Positions 1,446 to 21,766 of a DNA stretch of 21,766 bases are shown piece after piece. Both the position numbers and the translations under genes were made by a program. The stretch comes from Methanobacteriaceae archaeon 41_258 (GTDB lineage Archaea; Methanobacteriota; Methanobacteria; Methanobacteriales; DSM-23052). The notes under the pieces were generated by a model. It did not search any database. It was not told where the DNA came from and saw nothing but the letters and a program-made list of their open reading frames with translations. Position 1 is the stretch's first letter, and each line of letters begins with the position of its first letter. Location: NCBI GenBank assembly GCA_001507955.1, contig LGEU01000008.1, forward strand, positions 1 to 21,766. Direction: 5' to 3'.

Positions 1446-1451
1446 TTTTTT
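1446..1451 (+). terminator. oligo-T tract directly after the pyruvyl transferase stop (archaeal-type terminator candidate)
   Basis: TAA at 1438-1440 is followed by atccc-TTTTTT (1446-1451). Archaeal termination commonly uses oligo-T runs. Confidence 0.35.
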
Positions 1452-2294: not shown

Positions 2295-2464
2295 GGATAC
2301 GATAATGTAGAGAAACACATATTATTAGTTACCAGGGGATTGGCTTCTGTTTTTTCCTCGAGCTAAATGAGGAAGTCATTCAGAAAAGTAATTAACTTTC
2401 AGATTTTCCCCACAAGTATCCTACCAACATGTGAGAATTTTCAGCATCCTTATTGATAGTAAGA

Positions 2465-3228: not shown

Positions 3229-3507
3229 ATGTAATTTATCTGCCTTCTATTAATAAAATTTATTGAAAAGGGTCTGTCAAGAAGTTGAGGGTTTGATGTT
3301 CAAAAAGCTTTATCTGATTTAATGTTCGGGGTTTATGTGTGGATTTTACACCCTTTATTTGTTTTATGCTCTGGGGAAAACTTTTCCGGGTGTTCTCCTA
3401 GTGGGTTTGGCTCAATATTCTCATCAAATCAGGCTAGGAATGTCTTAGAGTATGGAAGGATCCTAACGTTATTGCCCCACTATAACCTTCGAATAGCTTT
3501 TTATGTC

Positions 3508-4363
3508 TTATAGTATCTTGTTTAGTTTGGCTTCTGGCTCCTTTGTAGGTTTTTGAATTGAATATCGAATTAATTCGAATTTTTCTCTTCTTATATTGTC
3601 TATCTGGTCTCTAGGCAAGTTTTTTTGACATGGTTTTCTGTGAAGCCTTTTAATGCGTGGAAGAGGCACCATTGGTGTTTGAAGCCCAGATGATTCTATT
3701 ATTGGCTCATCAGGGCCCGTTGTTATGGCTATCTTTTTAATAGGGTGTTTCTTTCCAGGGAAAGTCCCTTCTTACAGTGATTTTCTTCGGGGTATAATTT
3801 CGTCGGCCACGATAATATCCCTTCTAACATACATTTGTCTTTGATCTTGGATCTCCTATCAAAGATGTAATATTCAGAATAAGACTCCCCAAAATCCTAT
3901 CCAGACCTTTTAGGGATTCTCAGTCTTCGAAATGGTCTGTCTGGATTTTAATACCCCTTATAGGTGATTCTACGAAACCAAAAAATGGAGCCGCTAATTC
4001 AAAGGGCACTTCTCACCTGAACCCATAAGTAAACTGTTATCCTCCCATGATATATCAGCTTTTAAATCTTTTATCGCATCTGGTGCATCTATATGCTTGG
4101 GATCTCAGCGTCCACAACCCCCATAGGATAAGTTTCCTTCCGCATATAACCATCTCTAATCACATTTTTTATTTGAAGCCGCGGATTCATCCTGTATACG
4201 CAAAACATCCAATTTAGACCATTCTTTTGGCGTCCTAGATGATTTGACAAGCTTTTTGAATGATTAGCCCGACTTTCAATGTACTCTGAAAAAGACAAGG
4301 ATAGGAAAGCTTATAAGTCCGATCCAGCAAAACAACATTTGGAACAAGTGTTTTCTTTGTCAT
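3508..4363 (-). pseudogene. stop- and frameshift-riddled gene relic, weak sulfotransferase-like motifs
   Basis: ATG at 4363 is preceded by GGTGGAG about 12 nt upstream. The N-terminus reads MTKKTLVPNVVLL, like the start of a PAPS-binding strand. An internal (Y*)NPDRPFRRL resembles the RNPxDRxxS motif. The C-terminal frame RDQIDNIRREKFELIRYSIQKP... ends at TAA 3508-3510. No frame stays open for more than about 70 codons. The family assignment is tentative. Confidence 0.3.
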
Positions 4364-4927
4364 GTTAAACACTCTGCTCCACCCCACATAGACTTTAAGG
4401 TTCCATTCTTTCAGTAGTACTTTTTATAGGTGTGAGAACAGGTCATGGTGGATAAATTAAAAACCCACAAGTTTTTGACAGTGCCAAAGGTTAATGAAAA
4501 AACAAAATTTAGTTCTATATTTAAATCTTACGTTAGAAAATTAGTATTATCAATTGTTGGTGTGTGGTGACAATGACTTTGACACCCGTTGACGCAATCA
4601 TTTAAACCCATCTCAAAAAAGCGAATCATAGCTTGTAGTATGTGACTTTTTTTGTTCTTTTTTGCTACTTCAACCTCAGCCCAAGGTGTAAAACAAAAAA
4701 TTGAGTCTTTATGTTGCTTTTTGTTTTTGTGTCATTTGAGATTTAACTTATAAAATTTTTTTCACCACCAAGATTTTACTTTTTATTTCACTTTTACCTC
4801 CATATGCCCTAAAAGCGCTTGGCCGAAGTTTCACAGCAAAAAATTTTATTTACCTATATTATGAACCAAACAACCTGATTTACTCGCTAAAAGTAAACAC
4901 TTGAAAGTCCCCATAAATAGATCTGCC

Positions 4928-6181
4928 TTACTTGTCCAAATTTTGGAAAAACTTGAAAATTGGCCATAAATACTTTTTCGTTGAAAGCTCAGTTTTAATA
5001 TAACGAACCAGACTCCATACGTACATTCCAGTCGAAATTCTCTTTTCTTTGGAACTTGAAACTCCATAAGAAGGCACTTTATTTCCAAATAATTTTAAAA
5101 TGCCTGTATTAGGCTTTAAAAAATCTCTTTTGAACTTCTCCATCTCCTGTAATCTCTTGAGTCCATTTTTGCCTTCCACGCGTAGCATTTTCATTTCACT
5201 TCCATTTAATCTTTTTATCATTCTATCAGCAAATTCACTTCTCGTTATTATTAACGAATGATTTTTTAGATTATACTGTAAATAAGGAAACCAACCGCTA
5301 CCAATAGATATATCTGCTAATTCACATGTTTGATCGCGACATGCCATACACCTTTTGCTGCTACAAAAAATCAAATGATTAAAAACTAAATTCCAAAATT
5401 TAACATGGCTAACCTTTTTTGTACTTCCATTCATGCACTTGATTATCATATAACCAGGTGGAAAGTCTCCGGTTCGATATACCATTTCCTTAACTTCTTC
5501 TTCTGCTATTCCAAGTTTATATAATAAGTACTGGGTTGCCAAAAAAGTTATTCCATAAGAACAAAATAAGCCAATATGCAAAACAATTTTTTCTTTAAGT
5601 TCCTTTTTGAGCCTTTCGGCCTTTCTAAGACCATGAATATGGCATGGTAAACCGACCACTGCAAATTTTTTAAAATTAGAATTCAAAATTTCATTTAAAG
5701 CGACATTAGCTGGGACTGGGCAATACTTAGATCCTATAGCATCAATTAACTCATCTTTAGTCGTCGCTATAAACGCTTCGGGCTTTAAAGGATCATTTTT
5801 ACTCATTCTAGTAACCAAGGCACCGTCAATTATCTTTCCATCTAACAAACTGAGCAATAACTGAAGTACAACTCCCCCAGAAGATGATTCAGATCTCAAC
5901 TTTTCATTTAACGAGTGGCCAACATAAATATTTTTATAAGTTCCCAAAATGATGTCCTTTGGTTTTTCTTGAAATACAAATTCATTAAGTTCTTCAAAAT
6001 TAACTGCTATTCCCGGGCAAACTTTAATACAGATCATGCATTCATTGCATTCCCCTTTGATAATTGGCACATAAGTTCCCTTTTTTTGGTCGATCTCCAT
6101 TTTTATAATATTTTGAGGGCATAGGCCTGCGCAGGTCCCGCAACCAGTGCACAGATCCTTCACTTCAGTGATGTTTTTCAT
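4928..6181 (-). CDS. coenzyme F420 hydrogenase/dehydrogenase beta subunit (FrhB/FdhB)-like protein with N-terminal 2x[4Fe-4S] ferredoxin domain
   Basis: 417-aa ORF. It has two Cys clusters, CTGCGTCAGLCP and CNECMICIKVCP, followed by SSSGGVV...GLPCHIHGL, typical of the FrhB_FdhB N/C domains. Its start overlaps the flippase stop (ATGA at 6178-6181). Confidence 0.8.
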   Translation of the reverse strand: MKNITEVKDLCTGCGTCAGLCPQNIIKMEIDQKKGTYVPIIKGECNECMICIKVCPGIAVNFEELNEFVFQEKPKDIILGTYKNIYVGHSLNEKLRSESSSGGVVLQLLLSLLDGKIIDGALVTRMSKNDPLKPEAFIATTKDELIDAIGSKYCPVPANVALNEILNSNFKKFAVVGLPCHIHGLRKAERLKKELKEKIVLHIGLFCSYGITFLATQYLLYKLGIAEEEVKEMVYRTGDFPPGYMIIKCMNGSTKKVSHVKFWNLVFNHLIFCSSKRCMACRDQTCELADISIGSGWFPYLQYNLKNHSLIITRSEFADRMIKRLNGSEMKMLRVEGKNGLKRLQEMEKFKRDFLKPNTGILKLFGNKVPSYGVSSSKEKRISTGMYVWSLVRYIKTELSTKKYLWPIFKFFQNLDK

Positions 6182-7626
6182 GCTTCTTTCCCCAACAAGT
6201 TATTCAATAATAGCCTGTCATCATCTCCAAAGGTTTTCAACAGGAAGAGGAATAAGAAATAAATGATTGTGGCAAGACCAATAATGATAAATGTGTTCAG
6301 GTTTTTTATTGGATATATTGTTATGGCCATTATGATTGATGCTATTAAGGGTTTTGTGAATGTTCGATTCACATTTATGGTCTTATAATAGCGTCCTATA
6401 TAAAATAGGAATAGACAGTATAGTAGGAGTTCTGATAGTACTGTGGCTATGCTTGCGCCTATGTAGCTGTAATATGGTATTAGTATAAGGTTTAGGATGA
6501 TGTTGAAGGCTGCGCTTATTCCTACGCTGAACATTCTGTAGCCTTGTCTGTTTATGGAGCTTAAGAGTGTTCCTGTGATAGTGCTGACGAGCCGAATGGG
6601 TATGAAGAGTGCCAAGATTTGGAATGCTATTATGGCGCCGGTATATCCTCCAGCATAAAGTATTAGTATGAATTTGTCTGCGAGTATGAAACATCCAATG
6701 GCAATGGGAAGGCCAAAGATTGCAAGATACTTAGATGAAACAATTGTAAGTTTTCCTAGGGATTCTTTATTTTCTTTATAGTATTTTGACATTACAGGGT
6801 AGATTGCGGCTGACACTATCCCCGCGACAATCATACTCAGACTTAGAAGGGGATTATAGGCTGCATTGTAGATTCCAACGGCGACATCACCTTTTAAAAA
6901 ACCTAGGAGTATAGTGTCTATTTTGAAGAAAAACACTGCAAATAGTGCGTTCAAACCAAATGGTAATCCCATCATTAAAAGTTTTTTCTGCAGTTTCCAA
7001 TCAATCTTAAAGAGGGGTTTTATTAACTTTTTGAAGGTTATGGTTGCTGCGAGGATCATATCTATGATGCCTGCCAGGATATAAATGTATGCGACTGCTA
7101 TCACACCGTAGCCCATGAATAGGACCGTTAAAGTAAAAGTTGCGATTATTACACGTTCTATGATCTGGAATAGTGCGACATATTCCATTTTCTCCCAAGC
7201 CTGGAAGAGTGAAAGGTAAGTGCTTGAGAGTGTGAATAAGATATTGTAAATTCCGAAAAGATAGAGTAGAATGGATAATGTCTTAGGGAATCTAAGAGTC
7301 CATGTTATCAGAATGATACCTATGAATGTTAAAATTGAAAGCAGAATCTTTAATAGGATGGCATTGTTCACATAATATTCTGATAATTGTTTTTTTCTAG
7401 CTATCTCTCTTATGAGTAATTGGCTAATGCCGAGGTCGGCGAATATCGCGAAAAGGTTTGTAAATGAAAATGCAAAATTATATTTTCCAAAATCGGCTTC
7501 TCCAAGGAACCTTGCAAGGTATATGAAAAGCACGAAGGATATTAGCGCGGTTAATACTTGCGCTGCTCCCATCACTCCCATATTCTTTACTATTCTCTGA
7601 ATTTGATTCATTATAATCACTGACAA
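6178..7626 (-). CDS. oligosaccharide/polysaccharide flippase (MOP superfamily, Wzx-like)
   Basis: 482-aa ORF that is hydrophobic throughout, with many predicted TM helices. The N-terminus KNMGVMGAAQVLTALISFVLFIYLARFLGEADFGKYNFAFSF matches the polysaccharide biosynthesis protein pattern. The track start at 7626 is TTG; the first ATG is at 7611. Confidence 0.85.
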   Translation of the reverse strand: MSVIIMNQIQRIVKNMGVMGAAQVLTALISFVLFIYLARFLGEADFGKYNFAFSFTNLFAIFADLGISQLLIREIARKKQLSEYYVNNAILLKILLSILTFIGIILITWTLRFPKTLSILLYLFGIYNILFTLSSTYLSLFQAWEKMEYVALFQIIERVIIATFTLTVLFMGYGVIAVAYIYILAGIIDMILAATITFKKLIKPLFKIDWKLQKKLLMMGLPFGLNALFAVFFFKIDTILLGFLKGDVAVGIYNAAYNPLLSLSMIVAGIVSAAIYPVMSKYYKENKESLGKLTIVSSKYLAIFGLPIAIGCFILADKFILILYAGGYTGAIIAFQILALFIPIRLVSTITGTLLSSINRQGYRMFSVGISAAFNIILNLILIPYYSYIGASIATVLSELLLYCLFLFYIGRYYKTINVNRTFTKPLIASIIMAITIYPIKNLNTFIIIGLATIIYFLFLFLLKTFGDDDRLLLNNLLGKEA

Positions 7627-8780: not shown

Positions 8781-8803
8781 ATTCTTTGGTAATATTATTT
8801 ATT

Positions 8804-8878
8804 GCTCCGATAGTGTAGTCCGGCCAATCATCTCGGCCTCTCGAGCCGAGGACCCGGGTTCAAATCCCGGTCGGAGCA
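8804..8878 (+). tRNA. tRNA-Glu (anticodon CUC)
   Basis: 75-nt cloverleaf. The acceptor stem is GCTCCGA/TCGGAGC with discriminator A. The anticodon stem is TCGGC/GCCGA with loop CTCTCGA (anticodon CTC at 8841-8843). The T arm is CCGGG-TTCAAAT-CCCGG. The 5' GCTCCGATAGTGTAGTCCGGCCAATCAT is typical of archaeal tRNA-Glu. No CCA is encoded. Confidence 0.9.
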
Positions 8879-8887
8879 TTCTCTTCA

Positions 8888-9558
<671 letters not shown>

Positions 9559-11909: not shown

Positions 11910-12581
11910 ATGAAAACAGAATATAAGAACATCTCCAAGAAGATGAAAGACAAACTAGGACTTGAAAGGTCTCCCGTGGCTGTTAAACTCGTACTCCACG
12001 AGGAGGACATGCCAGGGGATGTTGAAAGGATAAGCGAGCCGGCTAGGCACTGCGAAATGGTGATGCGGGCAAGTGAAGGCGAAATGTTCTACGCACTCGC
12101 AGAGGACCAGGAATGCAAAGGGGGAGCAGGTGCCATCGGAGCCGCTGAAACACCAGAAACTGTAAAGACCGGAGAATTCTATTATGGCCTGGGCAGATTT
12201 TCAAGTCTCCCAGCCGCCAAAAGAACACTAGACCAGATCCCAAAGATAAACCTTAAATTCTATGCTGTAGTATACGCACCACTAGAAAAAGTAGAATTCG
12301 ACCCTAATGTTATATTAGTGGTCTGTAACCCTGCCCAAGCACTCAAGATAATCCAGGCACTAGTCTACACCAAAGGTGGCAGGGTCAAGGGAGATTTCGC
12401 AGGCATACAATCAATCTGTGCAGATGCAGTGGCAGGACCATACACGCGAGGCGAAGCCAACATAACCCTAGCATGCAGCGGCTCAAGACAATACTCCAAC
12501 ATAAGAGATGATGAGCTTGTAATTGGCCTAACAGCCGAAAATATAGACTGTACAGTAGAAGCGCTCGAAGAAATGGCATAA
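11910..12581 (+). CDS. DUF169 domain-containing protein
   Basis: 223 aa, with AAGGTGA (11896-11902) 7 nt before the ATG. The N-terminal LGLERSPVAVKL, then HCEMV...ECKGGAG...PNVILVVCNPAQALKIIQAL...QSICADAV...ITLACSGSR, match the DUF169 pattern as I recall it. Confidence 0.7.
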   Translation: MKTEYKNISKKMKDKLGLERSPVAVKLVLHEEDMPGDVERISEPARHCEMVMRASEGEMFYALAEDQECKGGAGAIGAAETPETVKTGEFYYGLGRFSSLPAAKRTLDQIPKINLKFYAVVYAPLEKVEFDPNVILVVCNPAQALKIIQALVYTKGGRVKGDFAGIQSICADAVAGPYTRGEANITLACSGSRQYSNIRDDELVIGLTAENIDCTVEALEEMA

Positions 12582-12582: not shown

Positions 12583-12804
12583 ATGGGGAGTGGATCAGCC
12601 TTGGTTGAAATAACCGACATATTAGATGAAGCACGTGACCTTGCAGAGAAGATAAAAAAGTACCGCGAAGAGGCTGAGAGTGAGACCATAGCATGTTGGA
12701 TCTATGATGTCATACTCTCAATGGAAGATCTGGCTAAAATCGTTGAAGAATTACAAGATAGGATAGACTTGCTCGAAGAGGAACTAGAAGGTAAAAAATT
12801 CTAG
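12583..12804 (+). CDS. small acidic coiled-coil protein, unknown function
   Basis: 73 aa. The ATG is 1 nt after the DUF169 stop. The sequence is E/D/L/K-rich with heptad character (LAKIVEELQDRIDLLEEELEGKKF). I recognise no homology. Confidence 0.45.
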   Translation: MGSGSALVEITDILDEARDLAEKIKKYREEAESETIACWIYDVILSMEDLAKIVEELQDRIDLLEEELEGKKF

Positions 12805-13433
12805 TTCCTCCTAATAATTTTTAGATAATCATCAAAGGTATTCAGGTTAATAAGTTCTATTCCATCTGACGGCCTTATAGCATACAAGATTATACCATCC
12901 CCTAGTATGTGCCAGAGCAATGGATTAACGTTACCACTATACAATGGTAAATATTTTAGTAGGAGTTTCCTGGGGGCTGCGAATGGCATCCCAAGACCCC
13001 TAGCATTGTCCAAGCAACCGAAAGAACCCCTCCCAAGTATCGACACTCTATCATCCCCCACGGCCCTGATAATCTTCTTGTAGGTCCTAGGAGTGACTGT
13101 TGGCTGGTCTCCGGCAACACAAAGACAAAAAAGTCCCCTAGCATTCTTCACACCATTCAATAACGAGCCAGTTAATGGCAGATCATCCTGGTTCTCCACG
13201 ATCCTAACATCCAAGTCACTGATCACAGGGATTATATCATCCTTCTGGTGTCCAACAACAACGATACACTCATCCACACCAGCACTCAGAACATTAACTA
13301 TGGTCTTTTCTATCACTGTTCCACCATTTAACTTTAGTAGGAGTTTATGCCTTGGCTTCAACCCCCTTTTTTTCATGTCAGCTTTCATCCTTTTCCCTTT
13401 ACCTGCTGCTGTTATAATCCCTGATACTTTCAT
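12801..13433 (-). CDS. MobA/MocA-like nucleotidyltransferase (NTP_transf_3-type)
   Basis: 210 aa. The N-terminal GIITAAGKGKRM is the nucleotide-binding loop, followed by K-LLKLNGGTVIEKTI, then ECIVVVGH, then CVAGDQP (the DQP motif of MobA-like enzymes). Confidence 0.7.
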   Translation of the reverse strand: MKVSGIITAAGKGKRMKADMKKRGLKPRHKLLLKLNGGTVIEKTIVNVLSAGVDECIVVVGHQKDDIIPVISDLDVRIVENQDDLPLTGSLLNGVKNARGLFCLCVAGDQPTVTPRTYKKIIRAVGDDRVSILGRGSFGCLDNARGLGMPFAAPRKLLLKYLPLYSGNVNPLLWHILGDGIILYAIRPSDGIELINLNTFDDYLKIIRRN

Positions 13434-13528: not shown

Positions 13529-14704
13529 CTACGTTGGTACTAATCTGAGGACTTTAGCATGTATCAGCATGCTCGGACCTGAACCTTCAGTCCACATGAT
13601 TATCATTATAGGATACCGCCCATCATTATACACTTTAACATCTGTAACCGGGTCGAAACCATACATGAGCGCGAAATATCCCCAGCTTATACCTGTGGGC
13701 GTGGGCAGCCCTGCCTCTGCAATAGCATCTCTGAGAGCTCTTGCCGGTGGACACGTACCATGTGAAGCATAACCTCCAGGAGCCTTGGGGTCCCTTGATG
13801 ATGTGAACTGGACTGTTTCCTTTCCAGGTGAACTCGTCCCAGGAGGCACTATGGTACCATTCCAAGCCTTTGTGAATTGTCTTGCATTATATTCCCTGTT
13901 TATATTACCATACTCTGGGTATGATTCAAGTTGGCTTGTGGCTGTTGCAACTTCCTCTACCTTGTAGTGGTGCATGTAGGCCATGATAGGGGCGCCCTCA
14001 GGATATTCCCGCATGTATTTTTTCGTTTTTTCACCAAAGAATCTGCTTATGTCCTCTGGTGGCACTTCTAGTCTGCCATCATTAAAATTGGAAAGTGAAA
14101 AGTCTATAGCTATCCGGTCACCTATCTTCGCTTCCTTGTACCATTCTTTAAGTTCTGTTTCATTAATATAATCAGAGGCCACACTATCTATCTCGTTGGG
14201 TGATAATGTCCTTATTGTTTTATTCTTCTCCACTATGCTTATACCATCCTCTGTTTTAACGGCATAGGTGTATGGTGTCTTATATGCCCATATGAAATTT
14301 GCTGGTGGCTGTACAACTAGCTTATCACCTTTCGTTGTTAGCATCCCAGGACCCTCTAATTTGGAGGCTTTTCCACTAGCATCAACACCCTCTGTAACTT
14401 CCTTTATTGGTGTCATCATGGTCCCTGTGAATAGGCCATAGATGACCGCACCTATATCTCCACTTTGCATGTTCTTGACTAGATAATCTGGGTGTATGAT
14501 TAGGGGTTCTTTCCTTATCTTTGCAGGGTCCGCCACTTGCATCCCAGACACTACTGTGCTCCCTATGGGTATGCTGCTTATCTTTTCAGGATTCTGTTGT
14601 GGTATCATGGTGTGGATGTGGTAATCTAGTGGGGTCATCACAGTCACTATCAATACTAGTATAACTATCATAATCCTAGGATCCTTTGAGGATGTTTTTA
14701 GCAT
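13529..14704 (-). CDS. membrane-anchored (N-in, bulk outside) protein of unknown function with a distantly VanW-like C-terminal region
   Basis: 391-aa ORF. An alternative ATG at 14671 lies 4 nt after the upstream stop. KDPR is followed by the hydrophobic IMIVILVLIVTVMTPL. The C-terminal NGTIVPPGTSS...GGYASHGTCPPARALRDAIAEAGLP...YGFDPVTDVKVYNDGRYPIMIIMW loosely recalls the VanW-domain pattern. Coding status is solid; function is unknown. Confidence 0.7.
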   Translation of the reverse strand: MLKTSSKDPRIMIVILVLIVTVMTPLDYHIHTMIPQQNPEKISSIPIGSTVVSGMQVADPAKIRKEPLIIHPDYLVKNMQSGDIGAVIYGLFTGTMMTPIKEVTEGVDASGKASKLEGPGMLTTKGDKLVVQPPANFIWAYKTPYTYAVKTEDGISIVEKNKTIRTLSPNEIDSVASDYINETELKEWYKEAKIGDRIAIDFSLSNFNDGRLEVPPEDISRFFGEKTKKYMREYPEGAPIMAYMHHYKVEEVATATSQLESYPEYGNINREYNARQFTKAWNGTIVPPGTSSPGKETVQFTSSRDPKAPGGYASHGTCPPARALRDAIAEAGLPTPTGISWGYFALMYGFDPVTDVKVYNDGRYPIMIIMWTEGSGPSMLIHAKVLRLVPT

Positions 14705-16145
14705 ATTTATAGCCTCCTTCCCCTATTATTAGGATGGTGTCATTTTTTTCTGCATGTTTTAGGGCTTTTTGGATGGCCTCATCCACCTGCTTCTTGCTGG
14801 CTCCTAATGTGCCTTGTTTCATTTTTTGTTTGCTAGACTTTATATGTATGATCTTGGCTCTTGTATGATCTGATGCCTTTCTCGCACTATATGATGCTGG
14901 TATTATGATGTTGGCGCTTGAGAGTATTCTTGCTATCTCTTTGTCGCCTTCTATTCCACTCTCAGAGGATATGGTATTCACTACTATGATTTTTCCAGGG
15001 GTTTCTTCTTTTACAAGTTGCATTATGGCCCTGACACCAGCTGGGTTATGGGCATAGTCTATGATTATCTTGGGCTCTCTTTTTATTATCTCATGCCTTC
15101 CAGCAGCGCCTTTAAATGAGCTTATACCCTCTATGATATGCTCGGGGTTGATGCCGAGGGTTAGGCTTGCGGCGGCCGCCGCAAGACTATTATAGACATT
15201 GAAAAGTCCGCCTGTTTTGAGTTTTATTGCCTTATCTGCTATGTTTAATCTGAACTTATCCATTTCTACTTTGGTGGCTTTAACGTCCAACTTTGGCCTT
15301 CTGTAACCGCATGTACAATAGTAGTCTCCAAGGTGGCCTAGGAACCTATTCTTGTATTTTAGGGGTTTGCCACAATAGGGGCATTCTCTGTCTTCTGGGA
15401 ATACCTCAAAGTGGGATTTGATTGATTCTATACCATAGAATGTTACTTTGTCCTTGGGGAGGCTTTTGGCGAAACTTGCTACTATAGGGTCATCAGCATT
15501 TAATATGATGTGCTGGGCGACGTCTATGATCTCTTTTTTACATTCTATGTATTTTGGGAAATCCTCTGGTGGTAGATGATCTCTTGAAATGTTTGTTATA
15601 ATAGCTATCTTGACTTTGCTGTCTGTAGCAGCCTTTTTTATTTCACCTGGTCTTCCAAATGTTCCTATTTCAACTACTGCTATGTCACCTTCTAGTCTTG
15701 CTTGTAAAGCTGGTATGAATTCTGTGTTTCCTTGGATGTTAAGATAATGTTCAGGGACCTTGTATCCTGCCACTCTTAGTATGTTTTTTAAAATCTGTGT
15801 GGTGGTGGTTTTGCCATTGGTTCCTGTGACGCCTACAACTGGCTTTTTAACTTTGCAGGATGCTATGATGTCCTCGACTGTTATGATCTCTTTGCCTTTT
15901 ATGAGTTGGAGTATCTTCTCATTTTCTAGTAGGCTTGGTGCCACCGCTATCTTATCAGCTCCTCTTATTATATTGGGGCTGTGACCTCCAAGGTCTAGTT
16001 TGATGCCCTCTGCTTGAAAGATTTCCCATAGGGGTGTTTTTTTGCGAATGTCTGATATTGTTACAGCAGCCCTCTTTGCTAGTATTCTGGCCATTAGGCT
16101 TCCTACTGTCCCGCACCCGCCAAGTACCACTATCCTCTCCATCAT
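14676..16145 (-). CDS. Mur ligase family protein (pseudomurein peptide ligase candidate) with MurT-like Cys4 ribbon insert
   Basis: 489 aa. It has an N-terminal VVLGGCGTVGSLMA Rossmann segment, the P-loop GVTGTNGKTTTT, ITNISRDHL, and a ribbon CPYCGKPLKYKNRFLGHLGDYYCTCGYRRP (nt 15309-15383). The C-terminal domain has YAHNPAG. ATGA overlaps the upstream gene. Confidence 0.85.
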   Translation of the reverse strand: MMERIVVLGGCGTVGSLMARILAKRAAVTISDIRKKTPLWEIFQAEGIKLDLGGHSPNIIRGADKIAVAPSLLENEKILQLIKGKEIITVEDIIASCKVKKPVVGVTGTNGKTTTTQILKNILRVAGYKVPEHYLNIQGNTEFIPALQARLEGDIAVVEIGTFGRPGEIKKAATDSKVKIAIITNISRDHLPPEDFPKYIECKKEIIDVAQHIILNADDPIVASFAKSLPKDKVTFYGIESIKSHFEVFPEDRECPYCGKPLKYKNRFLGHLGDYYCTCGYRRPKLDVKATKVEMDKFRLNIADKAIKLKTGGLFNVYNSLAAAAASLTLGINPEHIIEGISSFKGAAGRHEIIKREPKIIIDYAHNPAGVRAIMQLVKEETPGKIIVVNTISSESGIEGDKEIARILSSANIIIPASYSARKASDHTRAKIIHIKSSKQKMKQGTLGASKKQVDEAIQKALKHAEKNDTILIIGEGGYKYAKNILKGS

Positions 16146-17683
16146 CTGTTCCCCTTGTAATCTTCTATAGCCCTCCGAATGTCCATTTTAACATTTTGGT
16201 AGGCGTTAACAACCCCAGGACCCATGTGGATTATTATATTTCCTTTTTCAGAGTTTTTCAAGGCTTCTTTAATGGATTTGTAGACGTTTTCTACTATTAT
16301 GGTTTTTGTGGGGTTCGCCCCCTCTGCAACCTCTTCAGCCGCCTTCCAATCTATTTGCCCTGTTGTTTCATTTTTGGCACTTACAATGAGCAGATCAGCC
16401 GCTTTTGCAAGCGTCTTACCTATCTTGAATTTATCCCGCACTGTTAATGTGTCAGGATTGTCAAGGCTTATTATAAGCCCACTATCGAATTCCAAACCCT
16501 CAAATAATTTCTCCATGCTCTCTGGGTTGTGAGCAGCGTCCATATAAACTTTAACACCATCAACCACGCCCATGACCTCAAAACGCCCCCTTATACCCTT
16601 AAATTCGCCTATGCGCTCCTTCAGATAATCTATGTCAAAACCTAGTATCAATCCTGTTGTAATGGCAGCCAGTGCATTTTCAACATTGAATATTCCTGGA
16701 ACCTGTAAATTGATCCTCTCCTCATATGGTCCAACATATTCCCGCTTGAAATCCCCACATTCACAGTTTATACTCCCACATCTTTCACATAAGACTGTGG
16801 GTATTCTCCCACTTAAAAATGTGAATTCTGAACCCCTAAGACCCTTTAGTTTGATTTCTTCGGCTTTAACATCAACTGATAGGGGCCTTGTCACATATTT
16901 TCTACCATGGAATTCAACCAGTCTTTTCCTGCCCAAGCCATAAATGATGCGTGCGTCTATTTCATCTATGAATCCGCCTATTATGGGATCATCTCCATTG
17001 AGTATGAGCAAGCCCCTCTCATTGATAAGATCCTTAATGAGAAGGTTACGCCTGATATAATCATCATAATCCTTGAATTCGTCGAGGTGGTCTGGGGTGA
17101 GCGTGGTTATGATACCAGCGCATAATTCAAGGCCTTGTGTCATTCTTATGGTACCATGTGGCAGTTCAAAAACTGCGAATTCACCCTCCAGTTTATCCTC
17201 CACCAGCAAATCAACCAGGCCTTCAATGACAAGTGAATCTTCTAATGATGAAAATGATATCGTGGCATGCTTCCCCTTTAGGATATGTTTTATCATGTTT
17301 GTAGTTGTGGTTTTACCATCTGTGCCAGCCACTCCAACCATTGGAATCTTAATAAGGGAGTTAAGCATGCTGCCAATCATTGAAGGCGTTATATATTCAA
17401 TATCCTTTTTCTCTATTAGTTTGTATATCACCGAGTCTTTTGGGATGTTAGGTGAGATGAAAATGGCATCTGCCCATTCTATATCCTGAGGATGATGCCC
17501 CCCAAAATGGAACCTTATACCACTTTCCTGCATCTTTTTTATCCTTTTTTTAGCCTTTAGGGGTAGTTTTTCGAATTCTTTGATTTCTGTGACTAGCACT
17601 TCATTGCCAAGGTGGTGTAGTAGTTTTGCAGCGGGTCTGCCAGCATTCCCCGCACCAACCACTAGTATTTTCTTATTCCTCAT
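16142..17683 (-). CDS. Mur ligase family protein (pseudomurein peptide ligase candidate) with compact Cys4 cluster
   Basis: 513 aa. It has LVVGAGNAGRPAA, the P-loop GVAGTDGKTTTT, TTLTPDHLDEF, CERCGSINCECG (nt 16757-16789) and AAHNPES. It is a paralog of the 489-aa gene (FNVENALAAI vs FNVYNSLAAA; EFKGIRGRFEV vs SFKGAAGRHEI). There are ATGA overlaps at both ends. Confidence 0.85.
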   Translation of the reverse strand: MRNKKILVVGAGNAGRPAAKLLHHLGNEVLVTEIKEFEKLPLKAKKRIKKMQESGIRFHFGGHHPQDIEWADAIFISPNIPKDSVIYKLIEKKDIEYITPSMIGSMLNSLIKIPMVGVAGTDGKTTTTNMIKHILKGKHATISFSSLEDSLVIEGLVDLLVEDKLEGEFAVFELPHGTIRMTQGLELCAGIITTLTPDHLDEFKDYDDYIRRNLLIKDLINERGLLILNGDDPIIGGFIDEIDARIIYGLGRKRLVEFHGRKYVTRPLSVDVKAEEIKLKGLRGSEFTFLSGRIPTVLCERCGSINCECGDFKREYVGPYEERINLQVPGIFNVENALAAITTGLILGFDIDYLKERIGEFKGIRGRFEVMGVVDGVKVYMDAAHNPESMEKLFEGLEFDSGLIISLDNPDTLTVRDKFKIGKTLAKAADLLIVSAKNETTGQIDWKAAEEVAEGANPTKTIIVENVYKSIKEALKNSEKGNIIIHMGPGVVNAYQNVKMDIRRAIEDYKGNR

Positions 17684-18891
17684 TGTCCCACCATTTTTTC
17701 TATATTTTCTTGGATCTTTATGATCCTTTCTTGCCCATTACCCCCTATAAGTATTCTATGATATTCACTGCTAAACTCTTCGAGTAATTTGATGATTTCT
17801 TCCACGCCTTTTGCAGTTAAAACCTTTGAGGGTAGATTCTCTGCACACTTTAGGGCGATATCTGTTGTGTCCTCGAGGCCCGGGAATAATACAAGTATTC
17901 TTGGCGGTTTTTTACCTATTTCTTGTAGTGTTTCGAATCTCCAGTCCTCGTTTCTTCTTGGGGTTCCGAGGAATATTATGTCAAAATCAGTTTCCTTTAG
18001 TATGGTTTTCATGGCTGAGGGATTATCAATCTTCCCTATGACTATCTCCGCGTTATTTAATTTATATGTTTGTATACGCCCCCTTGGGGCTTCAAAATCT
18101 TCCAAGACGGAGTCTATTATATTTTTAGGCGTGCCGAGTATTTGGGCTGCTTTCGCGGCGGCGCCGGCATTTAACTTGTTAAATTTCCCGAAAAGGTTGA
18201 GTTTACCATCATATGGCCCATATAGTATTGACTTGGGGGTTTTTAATTGTAGTGATAGTAGGTCTTCTTTGTTTAGCAGGACGTTTTTGCCTTTTAGGAA
18301 TCTTTTGAGACTTTTCTTATAATTTTTGATGGTTTTGTGATGGTTCATGTGGTCTCGGCCTATGTTGGTTAAGATCACAAGATTTGGATTGAAACATTGG
18401 TCCGCGAAATCTAGTGTCATGTCACATATCTCAACGACTATGATGTCATATTTGTCCTCTGCGGCTTGTAGTATGAGTTCTGTGTAGCCTTGGAATCCTC
18501 CTCCTGCGTTGCCACCTACTAAGACTTTTTTACCCCACTTTTTTAGTATTTTTGTGAGCATGAGGGCTGTTGTTGTCTTGCCGTTGGTTCCGGTGATCCC
18601 TATGGTGTATGGTTTTTTGTGCTCTTGGAGGATGTTGCAGATTATTTTATCTTCTACTTTTTCTTTGAGTGGTGTGTTATAAAGGCTTGGGCTTAATATT
18701 ATAATGTCACATGCCTTTATCTTATCCATATCATGGAAGCCCAAATCTACTTCAACATCATCTAGACCCTCTAAATTTAGATTAGTGTTGATGTCAGTGG
18801 CGTATACCTTATATCCACGTTTTCTAAGTGATTTAACGGCTTTTCTGCCTTCAACGCCCAATCCTATCACTGCAGCTTTCATTGCGGACAC
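17680..18891 (-). CDS. MurD-like Mur ligase family protein (pseudomurein peptide ligase candidate)
   Basis: 403 aa. The track start 18891 is GTG; ATG at 18882 gives MKAAVIGLGVEGRKAV. It has the P-loop GITGTNGKTTT, VGGNAGGGF (cf. MurD GGNIG) and LTNIGRDHMNHH. There is no Cys ribbon. Confidence 0.85.
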   Translation of the reverse strand: MSAMKAAVIGLGVEGRKAVKSLRKRGYKVYATDINTNLNLEGLDDVEVDLGFHDMDKIKACDIIILSPSLYNTPLKEKVEDKIICNILQEHKKPYTIGITGTNGKTTTALMLTKILKKWGKKVLVGGNAGGGFQGYTELILQAAEDKYDIIVVEICDMTLDFADQCFNPNLVILTNIGRDHMNHHKTIKNYKKSLKRFLKGKNVLLNKEDLLSLQLKTPKSILYGPYDGKLNLFGKFNKLNAGAAAKAAQILGTPKNIIDSVLEDFEAPRGRIQTYKLNNAEIVIGKIDNPSAMKTILKETDFDIIFLGTPRRNEDWRFETLQEIGKKPPRILVLFPGLEDTTDIALKCAENLPSKVLTAKGVEEIIKLLEEFSSEYHRILIGGNGQERIIKIQENIEKMVGQ

Positions 18892-18923
18892 CAGAACTCT
18901 GATCGAGAATTCGACTTTTTAGT

Positions 18924-21437
18924 TTATCCTGTTTGGATTGTTGAAACCCCACCATTTTTTTCTACTGTGAATGTGTGATCTGCTAGGTTTTCTAGTTCTT
19001 CTTCGTGGGATACTATTATTACCTGTGAACATTCCAACTCTTCTAGTATTTCTCTGAATTTTAGGAGTTGTTCTTTGCTGAACCCGTCTGTTGGCTCGTC
19101 TAGTATGAGTATGTCTGATTTTATTGTGGAGTATCTTTGGATGATGGTGTTTAATGCTAGTCTGTAGGCTAGTGCGATGCTTGTTTTTTCACCTCCGCTG
19201 AGGTGTTCTATGTCCTGTTCGTAGCCTCCTTGTTCTATTATTGGTGTGAAGTTCTCGTCTATCCTTACAGTTTTTTCGTTGTCTTCTACGAGTTTTTGGA
19301 ACCAGCGCTGGAAGTGGCTGTTAAATTCTTGGTTTATTTGTATCATTACATGGGTTTCGATGTCGTGTAGCGTTGGTATGAAATATTCCTTGAGCCATTT
19401 CACATATTCTTTCAGTCTCTTTATAGATCTTTTTATTTTTTCCTTTTCTTTTATTTGCGCTTCTAAGTCTTTGACTTCTTCTTTTATCCTTTTGAGCGTT
19501 CCAAGATTTCTTGCACGTTCATTTTCGCATTCTCTTATCTTCTCCATGATGTGTTCTAGTCTGTTCTGTGTTTGGTCTTTTTTTTCTTTTACTTCATCCT
19601 TTTTTTCTAGTATTTGGTCTAGTTTTTCTATCTCCTCCTGGATGGATTCTATTTGGCTTGTTTTTTCCTTTATGATTTTTTTGTTTTCTTGGTATTCCAT
19701 GTTTTGGGTTGGTTTTAATTTTCTGATCATTTCTTGGTGTGAGCGTATCGAGGCTTTTATATTGGCTATTTTTTCTCTTAATGTGTTCATTTCACCCTCT
19801 AAATTCGCTTTTTCTGTTTTGAGTCGTCTCATTTCATCTGGGATGGTTGATTTCGCATTTATCCTCTCTTCTAGGCTCTTTTTCATATTTTTTATCTCTT
19901 TTGTTTTTTCTTTGATTTTCTTTATTGTTCTATTGTTTTTTTGAAGGTTTTGTTCCTTGTCTTCTAGTTTTTCTTTGAGGGTTTCTAGTTCTCTTTTAGC
20001 GTTTTCATATTCTATTATTTTTTCTTTGAGTTTTTTGTTTTCTTTTATTCTTGTAATGTATTCTTCTTTCATTTTTTCAAGTTCTTTTTTCTGGCTTTGT
20101 TTTTCTTCGAGTTTCTTTTTGATCTTGGATGGGTCAACTGGAGCTCCACATGTTGGACAGGTTTTTTCTTCTTTTATTGAGGAATAGTCATTTATCTTAG
20201 CGTTAACTTCCCCTATTTTCTCCTCTGTTATCCCCTTTTTTCTTTCATATTCTTCTATAATTTCTTCAATTTCTGTTAGGCTCTGATTGGATGGTCTTTT
20301 AATCTCTTCTAAGCTTTCAATTTCTTGGGTGATCTTGGATTGTTCCCTTATGATTTTTTTGTTGTCTTCTTGGATTTCTTGGAGTCTTTCGAGGTATTCT
20401 CGTTCTTGTTTTTTCAAATTTTCTAATTGGTTTTTATCTAATAGTATGCTCTCATAATCTTCTTTTATGTTCTCTATCTCCTCTTTTATCTCTTCCAGGG
20501 CTTTTTCCACCGTTTCTAGTCTTTTTTCTTGTTTGGATTTCTCTTTTTCCTTTTCATCCCTTTCTATGATGTGTCTCCTGTATTCTTCCTCTATTTTCTC
20601 GTTTTTCTTCTCGGCCTCTTCTATCCGCTCAGTTATAATGTTAATCTTATCTATTAGACTCTTTTTCCTATTATCAGCGTTTTTAATGTTTTCATATTCT
20701 CTTTCAAGCTCTGCAAGCTCATATTCTATGAATCTTCTATCCTCTTCCATTCTCTTCTTCTCATCTTCTATTTTTTCAATCAAAAGCTTGTATTTGTCTA
20801 TTTCATGTTTCCTCTCATCTCTTTTATCCTTTAACCCCTGGAGATCATGTATCATCCCCTTAAGCTCATCAGCTTTCCTATCAATCCGAACCGCCACCAT
20901 ATTAGCGTTCATGGCAGCTATGTTATAATCTTCCAATCTTAAAGCCTTTCTGATGGTTTTAAGCCGATCTTCAGGATTCATACTTATTATATTTTTCATC
21001 TCCTCCTGCGGGGTGAAAACAGCATACCTATAAATGCGACTCTTTGCACGCGGATTTAAAGGCTCATTATACTCCAATTTCCTAAGGATCCAATCCTTCA
21101 TATCTTTCGGTCTAAGGTTCACTCTACCATTCTCTGTCTCAATATAGCATATATCCTGACTTATACTCCCATCACTCCTCTTAAGACTCCTATAAACAGT
21201 ATATGTTTTACCATCCACTTGGAATGTGAGGGAAACATAACCCCTATTTGAACCTAAACGGAGCAGACCAGCCCCACGTTGACCACCCAAGCCAAAAAGG
21301 GCGAATTCAACCGCTAAGAGTATTGTCGTCTTACCAGAGCCTATATCCCCCTTAAAAAGTGTGACACCATCATAAAAATCGATCCTCGCCTCCCGGTAAC
21401 TTCGAATATTCTTAAGTTCCAAGGATTTAAGGATCAT
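18924..21437 (-). CDS. rad50: DNA double-strand break repair ATPase Rad50
   Basis: 837 aa. It has Walker A GDIGSGKTT, a very long K/E-rich coiled coil, the zinc hook CPTC (nt 20148-20159) near mid-protein, the signature LSGGEKTS, Walker B ILILDEPTDG, and SHEEE. Its start overlaps the upstream ORF stop (ATGA 21434-21437). Confidence 0.95.
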   Translation of the reverse strand: MILKSLELKNIRSYREARIDFYDGVTLFKGDIGSGKTTILLAVEFALFGLGGQRGAGLLRLGSNRGYVSLTFQVDGKTYTVYRSLKRSDGSISQDICYIETENGRVNLRPKDMKDWILRKLEYNEPLNPRAKSRIYRYAVFTPQEEMKNIISMNPEDRLKTIRKALRLEDYNIAAMNANMVAVRIDRKADELKGMIHDLQGLKDKRDERKHEIDKYKLLIEKIEDEKKRMEEDRRFIEYELAELEREYENIKNADNRKKSLIDKINIITERIEEAEKKNEKIEEEYRRHIIERDEKEKEKSKQEKRLETVEKALEEIKEEIENIKEDYESILLDKNQLENLKKQEREYLERLQEIQEDNKKIIREQSKITQEIESLEEIKRPSNQSLTEIEEIIEEYERKKGITEEKIGEVNAKINDYSSIKEEKTCPTCGAPVDPSKIKKKLEEKQSQKKELEKMKEEYITRIKENKKLKEKIIEYENAKRELETLKEKLEDKEQNLQKNNRTIKKIKEKTKEIKNMKKSLEERINAKSTIPDEMRRLKTEKANLEGEMNTLREKIANIKASIRSHQEMIRKLKPTQNMEYQENKKIIKEKTSQIESIQEEIEKLDQILEKKDEVKEKKDQTQNRLEHIMEKIRECENERARNLGTLKRIKEEVKDLEAQIKEKEKIKRSIKRLKEYVKWLKEYFIPTLHDIETHVMIQINQEFNSHFQRWFQKLVEDNEKTVRIDENFTPIIEQGGYEQDIEHLSGGEKTSIALAYRLALNTIIQRYSTIKSDILILDEPTDGFSKEQLLKFREILEELECSQVIIVSHEEELENLADHTFTVEKNGGVSTIQTG

Positions 21438-21766
21438 AAAAGACCACCCAAAGACTTGTCAATCGACAATACCCGGAGAGCATCCCGGAACAGCCCATCC
21501 TCATAATCAACCTTACGCTCATTAGGTTTCCTATCACGTCTCAAAGCATCTAAAAGTTCCATGGCAACATCAACATCACACTCCCTGAGAACATCCAAGT
21601 TCTCCCTATTCTCCTTGAAAAGACTCCTTTCAACCTGTGGAATATTTTCCACTTTAATCCTTATTCTCTGCCTCTCACGGCGCCTGAGACCATGACGGTT
21701 TATGTTAACATGTAAAGCACCCATCTCCACGAGCAGATCCCTTATCCTTAAAGGGTCTATCTCAGC
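21434..21766 (-). CDS. mre11: C-terminal part of the gene upstream of rad50, probably Mre11 nuclease (5' end outside window)
   Basis: The reading frame is open to the window edge (AEIDPLRIRDLLVEMGALHVNI...). It is translationally coupled to rad50, and mre11-rad50 is the standard archaeal order. The visible segment lacks the phosphoesterase motifs, so identity rests on context. Confidence 0.5.
   Translation of the reverse strand, partial: AEIDPLRIRDLLVEMGALHVNINRHGLRRRERQRIRIKVENIPQVERSLFKENRENLDVLRECDVDVAMELLDALRRDRKPNERKVDYEDGLFRDALRVLSIDKSLGGLL

Follow-up and report, generated by a model that had tools for sequence, protein, structure and literature searches.

An archaeal locus in which three consecutive Mur-ligase genes run into a gene for a membrane-anchored protein raises the question of which wall polymer it serves and what the anchored protein contributes. 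The locus lies on the minus strand of the window, a stretch of 21,766 nucleotides from an uncultured Methanobacteriaceae archaeon. An initial reading of 13529-18891 as an operon of three ligase genes and a membrane-anchored gene stands for those four; a fifth gene, at 12801-13433, falls outside it. Taken together, the two segments very probably constitute the five-gene pseudomurein ‘Gene Cluster 1’, pMurD2-pMurD1-pMurC-pmurA-pmurB, with the ligases, PmurA and PmurB in the roles proposed below. The locus is thus the previously described pseudomurein peptide cluster of Methanobacteriales, and this main finding is an ordinary one, not new. The new lead concerns PmurA, which may be an extracellular pseudomurein transpeptidase, and we put this forward as a hypothesis, not a result.

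Cluster identity, neighbours and distribution

The name Gene Cluster 1 is that of Subedi 2021 (PMC10117817); the same locus is cluster B in Lupo 2025 (PMC11915815). Curated NCBIfam models (NF053639, NF053640 and NF053645-NF053647) name the five genes as pMurD2, pMurD1, pMurC, PmurA (Mfer335) and PmurB (Mfer334), so that families and order are those of the Methanothermus fervidus example, Mfer340, 337, 336, 335 and 334, the last being an NTP transferase. The region is identical at the DNA level (100%) to public MAG contig DUIG01000010.1 (Methanobacteriaceae, NCBI), and among named organisms Methanothermobacter tenebrarum is its closest relative. The archaeal neighbours listed in the original prediction are all present: a Rad50 gene at 18924-21437, an FrhB-like gene, tRNA-Glu, tRNA-Gly and the tail of Mre11, the last recognised because gene order is shared with the public contig. 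Only 32-41 nt separate the end of rad50 from the cluster that follows it, and no promoter for the cluster was identified. Two ATGA overlaps and one overlap of 29 nt suggest, from the sequence, that genes one to four are translationally coupled.

The known cluster is confined to Methanobacteriales and Methanopyrales. Our distribution scan covered one genome per species across 185,579 species, required a linked PmurA gene and gave 112 matches; among the matches listed (80 of 112), all are labelled Methanobacteriales except two probable mislabelled bins. The possibility that the operon is common in pseudomurein-free archaea therefore fails as far as it is testable. PmurB comes next after PmurA in 71 of 80 related loci, the other nine being mostly cut by a contig end. 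An upstream ligase is present in 76 of the 80, with a make-up that varies: pMurD2 alone in 45/76, a pMurD2::pMurD1 fusion with pMurC in 14/76, and pMurD2 with a pMurD1::pMurC fusion in 11/76. Most related loci thus have pMurD2 only or fusions, whereas in the window the three ligase genes stand side by side without fusion, linked by ATGA overlaps.

PmurA, its predicted topology and its possible reaction

The pmurA gene (13529..14704, minus strand) encodes a 391-aa protein of the Mfer335 family (NF053640, 525 bits; cutoff 400), predicted to be extracytoplasmic and signal-anchored. What had been called an unknown exported protein consequently belongs to a named family, though its function is indeed unknown. 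As anticipated, its start is either ATG 14704, which overlaps pMurC by 29 nt (14676..14704, read directly) and has GGAGG 8 nt upstream, or ATG 14671, 4 nt past the pMurC TAG; a PmurA reading frame overlapping the upstream ligase recurs among related loci. The predicted membrane anchor was also borne out. A signal-anchor helix at residues ~9-31 (14612..14680, minus strand) is seen both in the hydropathy profile (KD19 maximum 2.05 at residues 11-12) and in the AF2 model (helix 9-31), and is preceded by the K/R-rich MLKTSSKDPR. All 80 orthologous reading frames have such a hydrophobic segment (KD17 >1.8), with a mean net charge of +2.4 before and -0.8 after it. This positive-inside pattern predicts a conserved N-in/C-out signal anchor and hence an outward-facing domain, the bulk of it outside the cell.

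Pfam assigned no family to the window PmurA, and its AF2 model (pLDDT 89, pTM 0.80) found no Foldseek neighbour in the PDB or BFVD. The family is restricted, with only 64 matches among 1.84 billion representative proteins. A single remote similarity recurs. Pfam VanW gives weak matches, in two colinear segments, to 32 of 122 PmurA orthologs; the best reaches 18.7 bits, short of the cutoff of 27, and the window protein itself has none. VanW proteins are Cys-dependent L,D-transpeptidases with an N-terminal transmembrane helix and an extracellular catalytic domain (PMC11348318). Profile comparison (hhalign) places a divergent VanW-like domain at residues ~268-386, the ~120 C-terminal residues (13547..13903, minus strand), with probabilities of 69-85% and P of 6e-6 to 4e-5. 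With a diverse VanW alignment the probability is 74.8% (P 2.6e-5, 111 columns) and 0/200 column shuffles reach the score; the C-terminal part alone gives 85% (P 6e-6) while controls give 0.2-0.3%. Using a narrow VanW alignment, an earlier run gave no significant match (P 0.048), and 4 of 160 shuffles scored as high.

Cys318 (codon at 13751-13753) of the invariant motif S-H315-G-x-C318-P-P-A-R322 aligns onto the VanW catalytic Cys. The PmurA model has the secondary-structure order of the AF2 model of VanW-B, and in both the Cys N-caps a helix. The C-terminal domain thus looks like a distant relative of the bacterial VanW wall cross-linking enzymes, to judge from profiles and models. Compared with the VanW L,D-transpeptidases (Pfam PF04294; Clostridioides difficile Ldt4 and Ldt5; Bollinger et al. 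2024, PMC11348318), PmurA would share the N-terminal anchor and extracytoplasmic catalytic domain, is colinear over ~110 profile columns, and like them has no structural neighbour in the PDB. It differs in falling under the Pfam threshold, in missing a segment of ~13 residues and the PG4 or G5 domains, and in its would-be substrate, the all-L pseudomurein stem. In the aligned PmurA columns nothing corresponds to the VanW Asp or to the VanW His, which is invariant in 19/19 VanW sequences; what PmurA does have is His315, three positions ahead of the Cys. We infer that the membrane-anchored PmurA would act on the exported stem peptide via a thioacyl intermediate, most likely in cross-linking transpeptidation, with carboxypeptidase removal of the terminal Ala as the alternative reaction.

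The rival that survives best, a real possibility though somewhat less probable than not, accepts an extracellular VanW-like protein and denies that it cross-links: PmurA could serve as a carboxypeptidase, as an autolysin or endopeptidase remodelling pseudomurein, as an enzyme that couples proteins or polymers to the wall, or as a non-catalytic wall-binding factor. The missing His and Asp favour this, as do VanW proteins that tested without transpeptidase activity and VanW L,D-transpeptidases that are also carboxypeptidases (PMC11348318, PMC12729407); transglutaminase-like proteins have, moreover, already been proposed as the cross-linkers (PMC10117817, PMC11915815). A non-catalytic role, however, sits poorly with Cys318, His315, Arg322, Arg325 and Asn360, invariant in 122 orthologs, which argues for catalysis. 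Against remodelling, PmurA is found as a single copy per locus, only in the pseudomurein-containing lineages sampled, and tightly coupled to ligase genes, so that a core biosynthetic step fits better.

The second rival, which we consider improbable, was proposed by Subedi 2021 and Cha 2026: PmurA as a cytoplasmic or inward-facing ATP-dependent enzyme that phosphorylates glutamate to start stem-peptide synthesis. The gene does lie between cytoplasmic ligase genes and a nucleotidyltransferase gene, Lupo 2025 predicted neither a transmembrane segment nor a signal peptide for the family (PMC11915815), and recombinant Methanobrevibacter ruminantium PMurA broke ATP down into ADP and AMP; glutamyl-phosphate, however, was not detected in that same study (Cha 2026, PMC12996149). 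Pfam and NCBIfam find no kinase, NTPase or P-loop family in the window PmurA or in 122 orthologs, the anchor and charge pattern in 80/80 reading frames predict an outward-facing domain, and the one remote similarity detected is that to a transpeptidase domain lying outside the cell. For the kinase step, cluster 2 offers an ATP-grasp protein as another candidate (PMC10117817). We do not think that PmurA is a cytoplasmic glutamate kinase.

The three ligases and the stem peptide

The three consecutive minus-strand Mur-ligase paralogs of the original prediction are the reading frames 17680-18891, 16142-17683 and 14676-16145, joined, as it had said, by ATGA overlaps at 17680-17683 and 16142-16145, which were read directly in the sequence. 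All three carry GxGxxG at residue 10 (GLGVEG, GAGNAG, GCGTVG) and a P-loop (GITGTNGKTTT, GVAGTDGKTTT, GVTGTNGKTTT). The N-I/T-x-x-DH motif claimed for each is present in two (NIGRDH, NISRDH); at that place the middle gene reads T-L-T-P-D-H. Pfam Mur_ligase_M matches all three (E about 1e-20 to 1e-23; 7.5e-20 for pMurD2), so the motifs are not a chance pattern. Each protein scores far higher with its own pMur model than with the next best family (573 vs 111 bits for pMurD2, 352 vs 154 for pMurD1 and 518 vs 146 for pMurC) and falls, in a neighbour-joining (NJ) tree, within its own pMur clade, apart from Escherichia coli MurC-F (18-23% identity), which upholds the pseudomurein reading.

pMurD2 (17680..18891, minus strand; NF053647, cutoff 550) is 403 aa long from GTG 18891. 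The start at ATG 18882 (400 aa) is more likely, because the NCBIfam alignment opens at residue 4 and the gene as called in the public contig is 400 aa long. Its C-terminal domain is short and divergent, with GKIDN instead of D-x-A-H-N-P and no Mur_ligase_C match in a Pfam search; GK(T/I)DN is found in 13/13 pMurD2 sequences examined.

pMurD1 (16142..17683, minus strand, 513 aa) has NF053646 as its best NCBIfam match, below the curated cutoff of 610, and its orthologs in other Methanobacteriaceae are likewise under the cutoff (408-494 bits). In the tree it is sister to a Methanothermobacter sp. ortholog. Besides the GTDGKTTT P-loop it has CERCGSINCEC at residues 299-309 (16757-16789), a small Cys knuckle. 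Its TN(L)TPDH motif has Thr where the otherwise conserved Asn of Gene Cluster 1 stands in the other 8/8 orthologs examined; Thr also occurs in an independent MAG, and judging from these sequences the replacement is lineage-specific.

pMurC (14676..16145, minus strand, 489 aa) also scores below its curated cutoff (NF053645, 560), and phmmer matches it to M. fervidus Mfer336 pMurC (PDB 6VR7) with E 1.3e-183 and 614 bits, aligned over the full length (residues 3-486 to 6-488). The two share the GTNGKTTT P-loop and a Cys4 zinc ribbon, and differ in genus; of the two, Mfer336 is the one with a crystal structure. The ribbon, a middle-domain insert with C255/C258/C277/C279 (15309-15383), is kept in 10/10 pMurC sequences examined and agrees with the Zn site reported in Mfer336 (PMC10117817). 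The second-best PDB matches, at 117 bits in the middle domain, are structures of the lipid II isoglutaminyl synthase subunit MurT (6GS2, 7Q8E). MurT carries a Cys4 zinc ribbon too; the window ligases differ from it in having a MurC/D-type N-terminal Rossmann domain (Pfam MurD-like_N) and no GatD partner gene nearby.

That shared ribbon and common membership of the Mur-ligase superfamily are what favour a role outside pseudomurein (coenzyme F430 through CfbE, MurT/GatD-type amidation, cyanophycin or folylpolyglutamate-type synthesis), a reading with next to no probability that is effectively excluded by the model scores (CfbE 43-61, MurT 25-119, cyanophycin synthetase 37-110 and FolC 32-64 vs 352-573 bits for pMur, on which the FPGS or cyanophycin-type alternative fails), the 6VR7 match and the NJ tree, with pMurC clearly orthologous to the structurally solved Mfer336, the linkage to PmurA and PmurB strict and confined to pseudomurein-bearing orders, and a PMurC ortholog active on a UDP-Glu analog (PMC12996149).

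In the pseudomurein pathway, the three cytoplasmic ATP-dependent ligases would extend UDP-activated L-glutamate into an all-L, isopeptide-linked stem peptide. pMurC would add L-Ala (Thr in some species) onto the gamma-carboxyl of UDP-Glu, and its ortholog adds Ala or Thr to the analog in vitro; pMurE, encoded elsewhere in the genome, would add Lys, as PMurE did in vitro in 2026 (PMC12996149). By elimination pMurD1 and pMurD2, for which that study saw ATP hydrolysis alone, would between them attach the remaining residues, an Ala on the Lys and a gamma-linked Glu. The view that these steps are largely untested biochemically is thus partly outdated, PMurC, PMurE and PMurB having been assayed, and still holds for what pMurD1 and pMurD2 add. 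The bacterial dcw cluster (ftsI-murE-murF-mraY-murD-ftsW-murG-murC-ddl) likewise encodes sequential ATP-dependent Mur ligases working on a UDP-linked acceptor and, if PmurA is a transpeptidase, would share a further trait, a gene for an extracytoplasmic transpeptidase embedded among those of the cytoplasmic ligases. It differs in that the acceptor here is UDP-Glu rather than UDP-MurNAc, that pseudomurein residues are all L-amino acids with partly gamma and epsilon isopeptide bonds, and that the window cluster has no MraY, MurG or FtsW gene.

pmurB and a predicted hairpin over its stop codon

The fifth gene, pmurB, lies 95 nt downstream of pmurA on the same strand and encodes a 210-aa nucleotidyltransferase of the Mfer334 family (NF053639, 260.0 bits at a cutoff of 260), with a Pfam NTP_transf_3 match (E 4e-19). 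A PMurB ortholog was assayed in vitro in 2026 (PMC12996149), and the enzyme would make or use the UDP-Glu starter. Over the pmurB stop codon, RNA folding predicts a hairpin (12776..12812, minus strand) with a 14-bp stem and a U-rich 9-nt loop (-18.7 kcal/mol, z -3.6 against shuffles), a possible candidate for the operon end.

Gene composition and ligase identity of the pseudomurein cluster

The four consecutive minus-strand ORFs on which the original prediction rests were all present, at 17680-18891 (pMurD2), 16142-17683 (pMurD1), 14676-16145 (pMurC) and 13529-14704 (PmurA, Mfer335 family), and the ATGA overlaps proposed between the ligase genes can be read directly at 17680-17683 and 16142-16145. 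The operon had been given too small an extent, as a fifth gene, pmurB (Mfer334 family), lies beyond these four at 12801-13433 on the same strand, and the unit therefore comprises five genes. Scores against the curated NCBIfam models were 573 bits for pMurD2 (NF053647; cutoff 550, next family 111), 352 bits for pMurD1 (NF053646; cutoff 610, next family 154), 518 bits for pMurC (NF053645; cutoff 560, next family 146), 525 bits for PmurA (NF053640; cutoff 400, no next family) and 260.0 bits for PmurB (NF053639; cutoff 260, next family 69). PmurB thus scores exactly at the cutoff; it also has an NTP-transferase fold (Pfam NTP_transf_3 at 4e-19). As suggested, the fourth ORF has two possible starts, ATG 14704 (29-nt overlap with pMurC) and ATG 14671 (4 nt past the TAG). 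We prefer ATG 14704 because only this start retains the K/R-rich segment seen in orthologs ahead of the hydrophobic helix; a GGAGG is found 8 nt upstream of it.

The pMur-ligase reading was correct, with the curated pMur models scoring best for all three ligases, and the cluster has been published before. The five-gene unit corresponds to ‘Gene Cluster 1’ in Subedi et al. 2021 and to ‘cluster B’ in Lupo et al. 2025, here as a further, unfused copy of a known and curated pseudomurein cluster. The sequence was also present in public MAGs beforehand: window 12801-18891 matches NCBI MAG contig DUIG01000010.1 (GCA_013330535.1) at 100% identity, and a second MAG differs at 4 positions. PmurA shares 93% identity with a protein cluster that has members from ‘Methanobacteriaceae archaeon’ MAGs and 80% with the Methanothermobacter tenebrarum protein. 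The cluster as such contributes nothing new; it is real, it was correctly interpreted, and its remaining value is the lead offered by PmurA.

All three ligases carry GxGxxG at residue 10 and the GxxGTxGKTTT P-loop, and all three match Pfam Mur_ligase_M (E 1e-20 to 1e-23), with Mur_ligase_C found in two. The N-I/T-x-x-DH motif also ascribed to each is exact in two ligases, while the middle one, pMurD1, reads T-L-T-P-D-H. In a neighbor-joining tree built with E. coli MurC-F and the orthologs of twelve related loci, all three window ligases group within their own pMur clades, each as sister to a Methanothermobacter sp. sequence. pMurC is below its model cutoff, yet this is its best family by 370 bits; it sits within the pMurC clade, matches the crystal structure 6VR7 of the M. 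fervidus ortholog Mfer336 over its full length (E 1.3e-183), and shares with Mfer336 a Cys4 zinc ribbon (C255, C258, C277, C279) and a GTNGKTTT P-loop. The pMurD2 match spans model positions 1-405 of NF053647, its C-terminal domain being short, and its GKIDN motif is common to all pMurD2 sequences examined.

The low score of pMurD1 could be taken to mean a different paralog. Four pMurD1 orthologs from other Methanobacteriaceae are likewise sub-cutoff, at 408-494 bits, and the score is therefore a property of a cutoff that leaves out the whole branch; the placement of pMurD1 within the pMurD1 clade and its clade signatures (GTDGKTTT, DAAHNP, CxxCx4CxC) also speak against another paralog. Membership of the FPGS or cyanophycin-type ligases, named in the original prediction as an outcome that would count against it, was not found: FolC models gave 32-64 bits and cyanophycin synthetase models 37-110 bits, against 352-573 bits for the pMur models, and CfbE (43-61 bits) and MurT (25-119 bits) pathways were ruled out by the same scores.

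Residues ~190-197 of pMurD1 read ITTLTPDH, with Thr replacing the Asn of TN(L)TPDH. The Asn is retained by the other eight pMurD1 orthologs, by every pMurC and pMurD2 sequence examined and by E. coli MurC-F. The Thr is no sequencing error, since it recurs in an independent MAG from this lineage.

Distribution and gene order of PmurA loci

Scanning the PmurA alignment against one genome per species (185,579 species) gave 112 confirmed matches, 80 of which were listed. All of these 80 are labelled Methanobacteriales except for one ‘Methanomicrobiales archaeon’ MAG (L004, JBNGDB010000006.1) and one ‘Bacteroidaceae bacterium’ bin (L061, CAVDAS010000079.1). Both contigs have the same PmurA-PmurB-DUF169 arrangement, and a wrong taxonomic label or bin contamination is the probable explanation for both; were the Methanomicrobiales label of L004 correct, it would affect the claim of restriction to pseudomurein-containing orders. 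That the operon might be common in pseudomurein-free archaea, the second outcome held to count against the pMur assignment, was not seen among the 80 listed of the 112 matches. A PmurA HMMER profile run against 1.84 billion representative proteins returned only 64 family members or fragments and no bacterial relatives. The two odd-labelled contigs aside, we judge the PmurA/Mfer335 family to be restricted to pseudomurein-containing methanogens. The most divergent full-length homolog (27% identity) is found on two contigs of 62.7% GC (L087 and L088; GCA_054046225.1 and GCA_054003095.1), probably from a Methanopyrales lineage. It is solitary, with no Mur ligase or PmurB nearby and with TP_methylase and MoaA-like radical SAM genes on its flanks, and it retains the invariant His and Cys of the family.

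PmurB is the next gene after PmurA in 71 of the 80 related loci; most of the remaining nine are truncated by a contig end. For the 76 loci with a ligase upstream of PmurA, pMurD2 alone is found in 45, a pMurD2::pMurD1 fusion and then pMurC in 14, and pMurD2 and then a pMurD1::pMurC fusion in 11. The pMurD2::pMurD1 fusion is ~934 aa long (14 loci) and the pMurD1::pMurC fusion ~1010-1160 aa (11-13 loci). Among the loci examined, three separate ligase genes with 4-nt overlaps are found solely in the window and near-identical contigs, and the junctions fused in other loci are the 4-nt ATGA overlaps of the window. The boundaries between ligase genes seem to alternate readily between fusion and coupling. 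Elsewhere in the Methanobacteriaceae, the fused ligases are single stop-free ORFs (for example L003:6961-9993 and L012:5667-8468, in two of the related loci).

Predicted topology of PmurA and its probable relation to VanW

The literature puts PmurA forward as a glutamate kinase (PMC10117817, PMC12996149) and, by prediction, places it in the cytoplasm (PMC11915815). In published assays, PMurA and the two PMurD proteins showed ATP hydrolysis only and no product was found (PMC12996149); the cytoplasmic kinase role given to PmurA has had no product detected for it. An N-terminal hydrophobic segment (KD17 > 1.8) is present in 80/80 orthologous PmurA ORFs, with a mean net charge of +2.4 ahead of it and -0.8 behind it. 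The AF2 model (pLDDT 89, pTM 0.80) places a helix at residues 9-31. Together, the hydrophobic segment, the charge pattern and the modelled helix predict a signal anchor with a 360-residue body facing outward, the opposite of the published cytoplasmic prediction.

No Pfam domain was found in the window PmurA, no structural neighbours of its model in PDB or BFVD, and no match of its profile to PDB sequences. An SHGxC motif resembling the SHGC of YkuD L,D-transpeptidases was considered and dropped, as there was neither a Pfam YkuD nor a Foldseek match. VanW (PF04294) was the only Pfam family to recur as a weak match, in 32 of 122 PmurA orthologs with a best E of 0.0012 (the next family in 4). The window PmurA itself does not match VanW at the gathering threshold of 27 bits, and the best ortholog reaches a sub-threshold 18.7 bits (E 0.0013). 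The weak matches are colinear, residues ~269-312 corresponding to model positions 1-44 and residues ~352-375 to positions 100-123. Work from 2024 established VanW domains as Cys-dependent L,D-transpeptidases; the proteins pair an N-terminal transmembrane helix with a catalytic domain outside the cell, and no structural relatives are known for them (PMC11348318).

In profile–profile comparison with hhalign, PmurA against a narrow alignment of VanW-B type was not significant (P 0.048; 4/160 shuffles as good), and a signal emerged only once 13 diverse plasmid-borne VanW genes from five bacterial phyla were added, giving a diverse VanW-domain alignment of 19 sequences. Against this alignment, the 122-sequence PmurA alignment gave a probability of 74.8% (P 2.6e-5; score 41.4 over 111 columns), a 25-sequence alignment 69% (P 4.3e-5) and the C-terminal part alone 85% (P 6e-6), supportive values that stay under the usual 90-95% probability bar. 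The controls gave 0.2% (P 0.32) for the N-terminal part of PmurA and 0.3% (P 0.2) for a ligase alignment. Scores from 200 column shuffles of the VanW profile averaged 14.7 and peaked at 26.2, all short of the real one, and the reversed profile scored 15.5. In the alignment, Cys318, invariant in PmurA, falls on the VanW catalytic Cys (GGGxCQ in VanW, SHGxCPP in PmurA), and an AGL/AGF turn and an xKVxN(D/T)xxxP(I/V)xI strand are also matched. The AF2 models of PmurA and VanW-B share the order of elements, with the Cys as the first helix residue in both. The rest of the VanW Cys-His-Asp triad, a His invariant in 19/19 sequences and an Asp, is without counterpart in the aligned columns; PmurA has its own invariant His315, Arg322, Arg325 and Asn360, with His315 located elsewhere than the VanW His. 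Weighing these observations, we consider it quite probable that PmurA is homologous to VanW. Our literature search found no paper connecting VanW with pseudomurein or Mfer335, and a scan found no VanW relatives on viral contigs. Separately, three actinobacterial plasmid VanW-family proteins (L099-L101, from Nocardia, Rhodococcus and Streptomyces) carry Ser at the position of the catalytic Cys (GGGISQ, GGGVSA), and may use a Ser nucleophile or be non-catalytic.

Parts of the cytoplasmic pathway have been assayed with orthologs: PMurB is a nucleotidyltransferase acting on the Glu starter, M. ruminantium PMurC joins Ala or Thr to a UMP-Glu analog, and M. fervidus PMurE attaches Lys (PMC12996149). 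The view that the order and specificity of the ligases cannot be read from their sequences therefore holds for pMurD1 and pMurD2, whose PMurD counterparts gave ATP hydrolysis only, and is superseded for pMurC by the ortholog assay (PMC12996149). By analogy with these orthologs, UDP-Glu would be made with PmurB, Ala added by pMurC, and Lys added by pMurE, which is encoded elsewhere; the terminal Ala and the gamma-Glu branch may come from pMurD1 and pMurD2, and the gene overlaps may couple translation of pMurD2, pMurD1, pMurC and PmurA. An outward-facing PmurA would act on the exported stem outside the membrane through a Cys318 thioester. Its most likely reaction would be cleavage of the Lys-Ala bond with release of the terminal Ala, after which the gamma-linked Glu of a neighbouring stem would accept the Lys carbonyl on its free amino group. 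In the scheme of König and Kandler, the terminal Ala is reportedly lost upon cross-linking. A precedent for mixing such genes is the bacterial dcw cluster, where ftsI lies among mur genes.

No enzyme has, to our knowledge, been identified as the cross-linker of pseudomurein. That PmurA is both a divergent archaeal member of the VanW superfamily and this missing extracellular enzyme is a tentative proposal, and one we regard as somewhat unlikely. If true, pseudomurein and murein would have in common not only cytoplasmic ligases but also a homologous Cys-transpeptidase that cross-links the wall, in contradiction of two published statements, that these archaea have no homologs of bacterial cross-linking enzymes and that transglutaminases do the cross-linking. 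A VanW-like, Cys-bearing, outward-facing PmurA offers a specific hypothesis that could be tested at little cost. PmurA would then also be a candidate target against gut and rumen methanogens, and since meropenem inhibits VanW L,D-transpeptidases, active-site-directed inhibitors might be tried on it.

Genes flanking the cluster

The neighbours are those originally described, namely Rad50, the tail of Mre11, tRNA-Glu, tRNA-Gly and an FrhB-like gene. On the public contig, Rad50 and the Mre11 tail are part of a NurA-HerA-Mre11-Rad50 block directly upstream of the cluster, and in about nine other loci, too, Rad50 precedes pMurD2. Cluster and rad50 share a strand, and only 32-41 nt separate the rad50 stop codon from the start of the cluster (gap 18892-18923; rad50 side 18924-21766). 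The 41 nt ahead of pMurD2 show no clear archaeal TATA box, and the cluster may thus be co-transcribed with the DNA-repair genes.

At the other end, a DUF169 (COG2043) gene at 11910-12581 on the plus strand is convergent to pmurB, an arrangement shared by the majority of the 80 related Methanobacteriales loci (42-67% identity). This linkage could be functional or could merely reflect gene order conserved within Methanobacteriales. A minus-strand hairpin at 12776-12812 (14-bp perfect stem, U-rich loop, -18.7 kcal/mol, z -3.6) encloses the pmurB stop codon and could be a terminator shared by the convergent transcripts; public annotations call a 67-73-aa ORF on the opposite strand there. Further along, a CARF-like domain (HFX_2341_N, Csa3/Cas_APE2256-type) is fused to a winged-helix HTH at 8962-9558 (minus strand), in a gene adjoining tRNA-Gly(CCC) at 8888-8961 and tRNA-Glu(CTC) at 8803-8879. 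The window holds no CRISPR array or cas genes.

The stretch at 1441-4927 looks degraded, with a GC content of ~35%, compared with 40-45% for the pMur cluster. ORF 1998-2294, a fragment, resembles the C-terminal end of the pyruvyl transferase from 172-1440, ORF 2465-2956 encodes a short methyltransferase of the FkbM type, and the about 1.9 kb at 2957-4845 have no ORF of at least 80 aa, no Rfam match and no tandem repeat. Three envelope-related genes lie in the low-GC left part of the window, the polysaccharide pyruvyl transferase at 172-1440 (plus strand) and, on the minus strand with a 4-nt overlap, an FrhB/FdhB-like Fe-S protein at 4928-6181 and a Polysacc_synt/MurJ-like flippase at 6178-7626. 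These three may form part of a distinct glycan pathway of the cell envelope.
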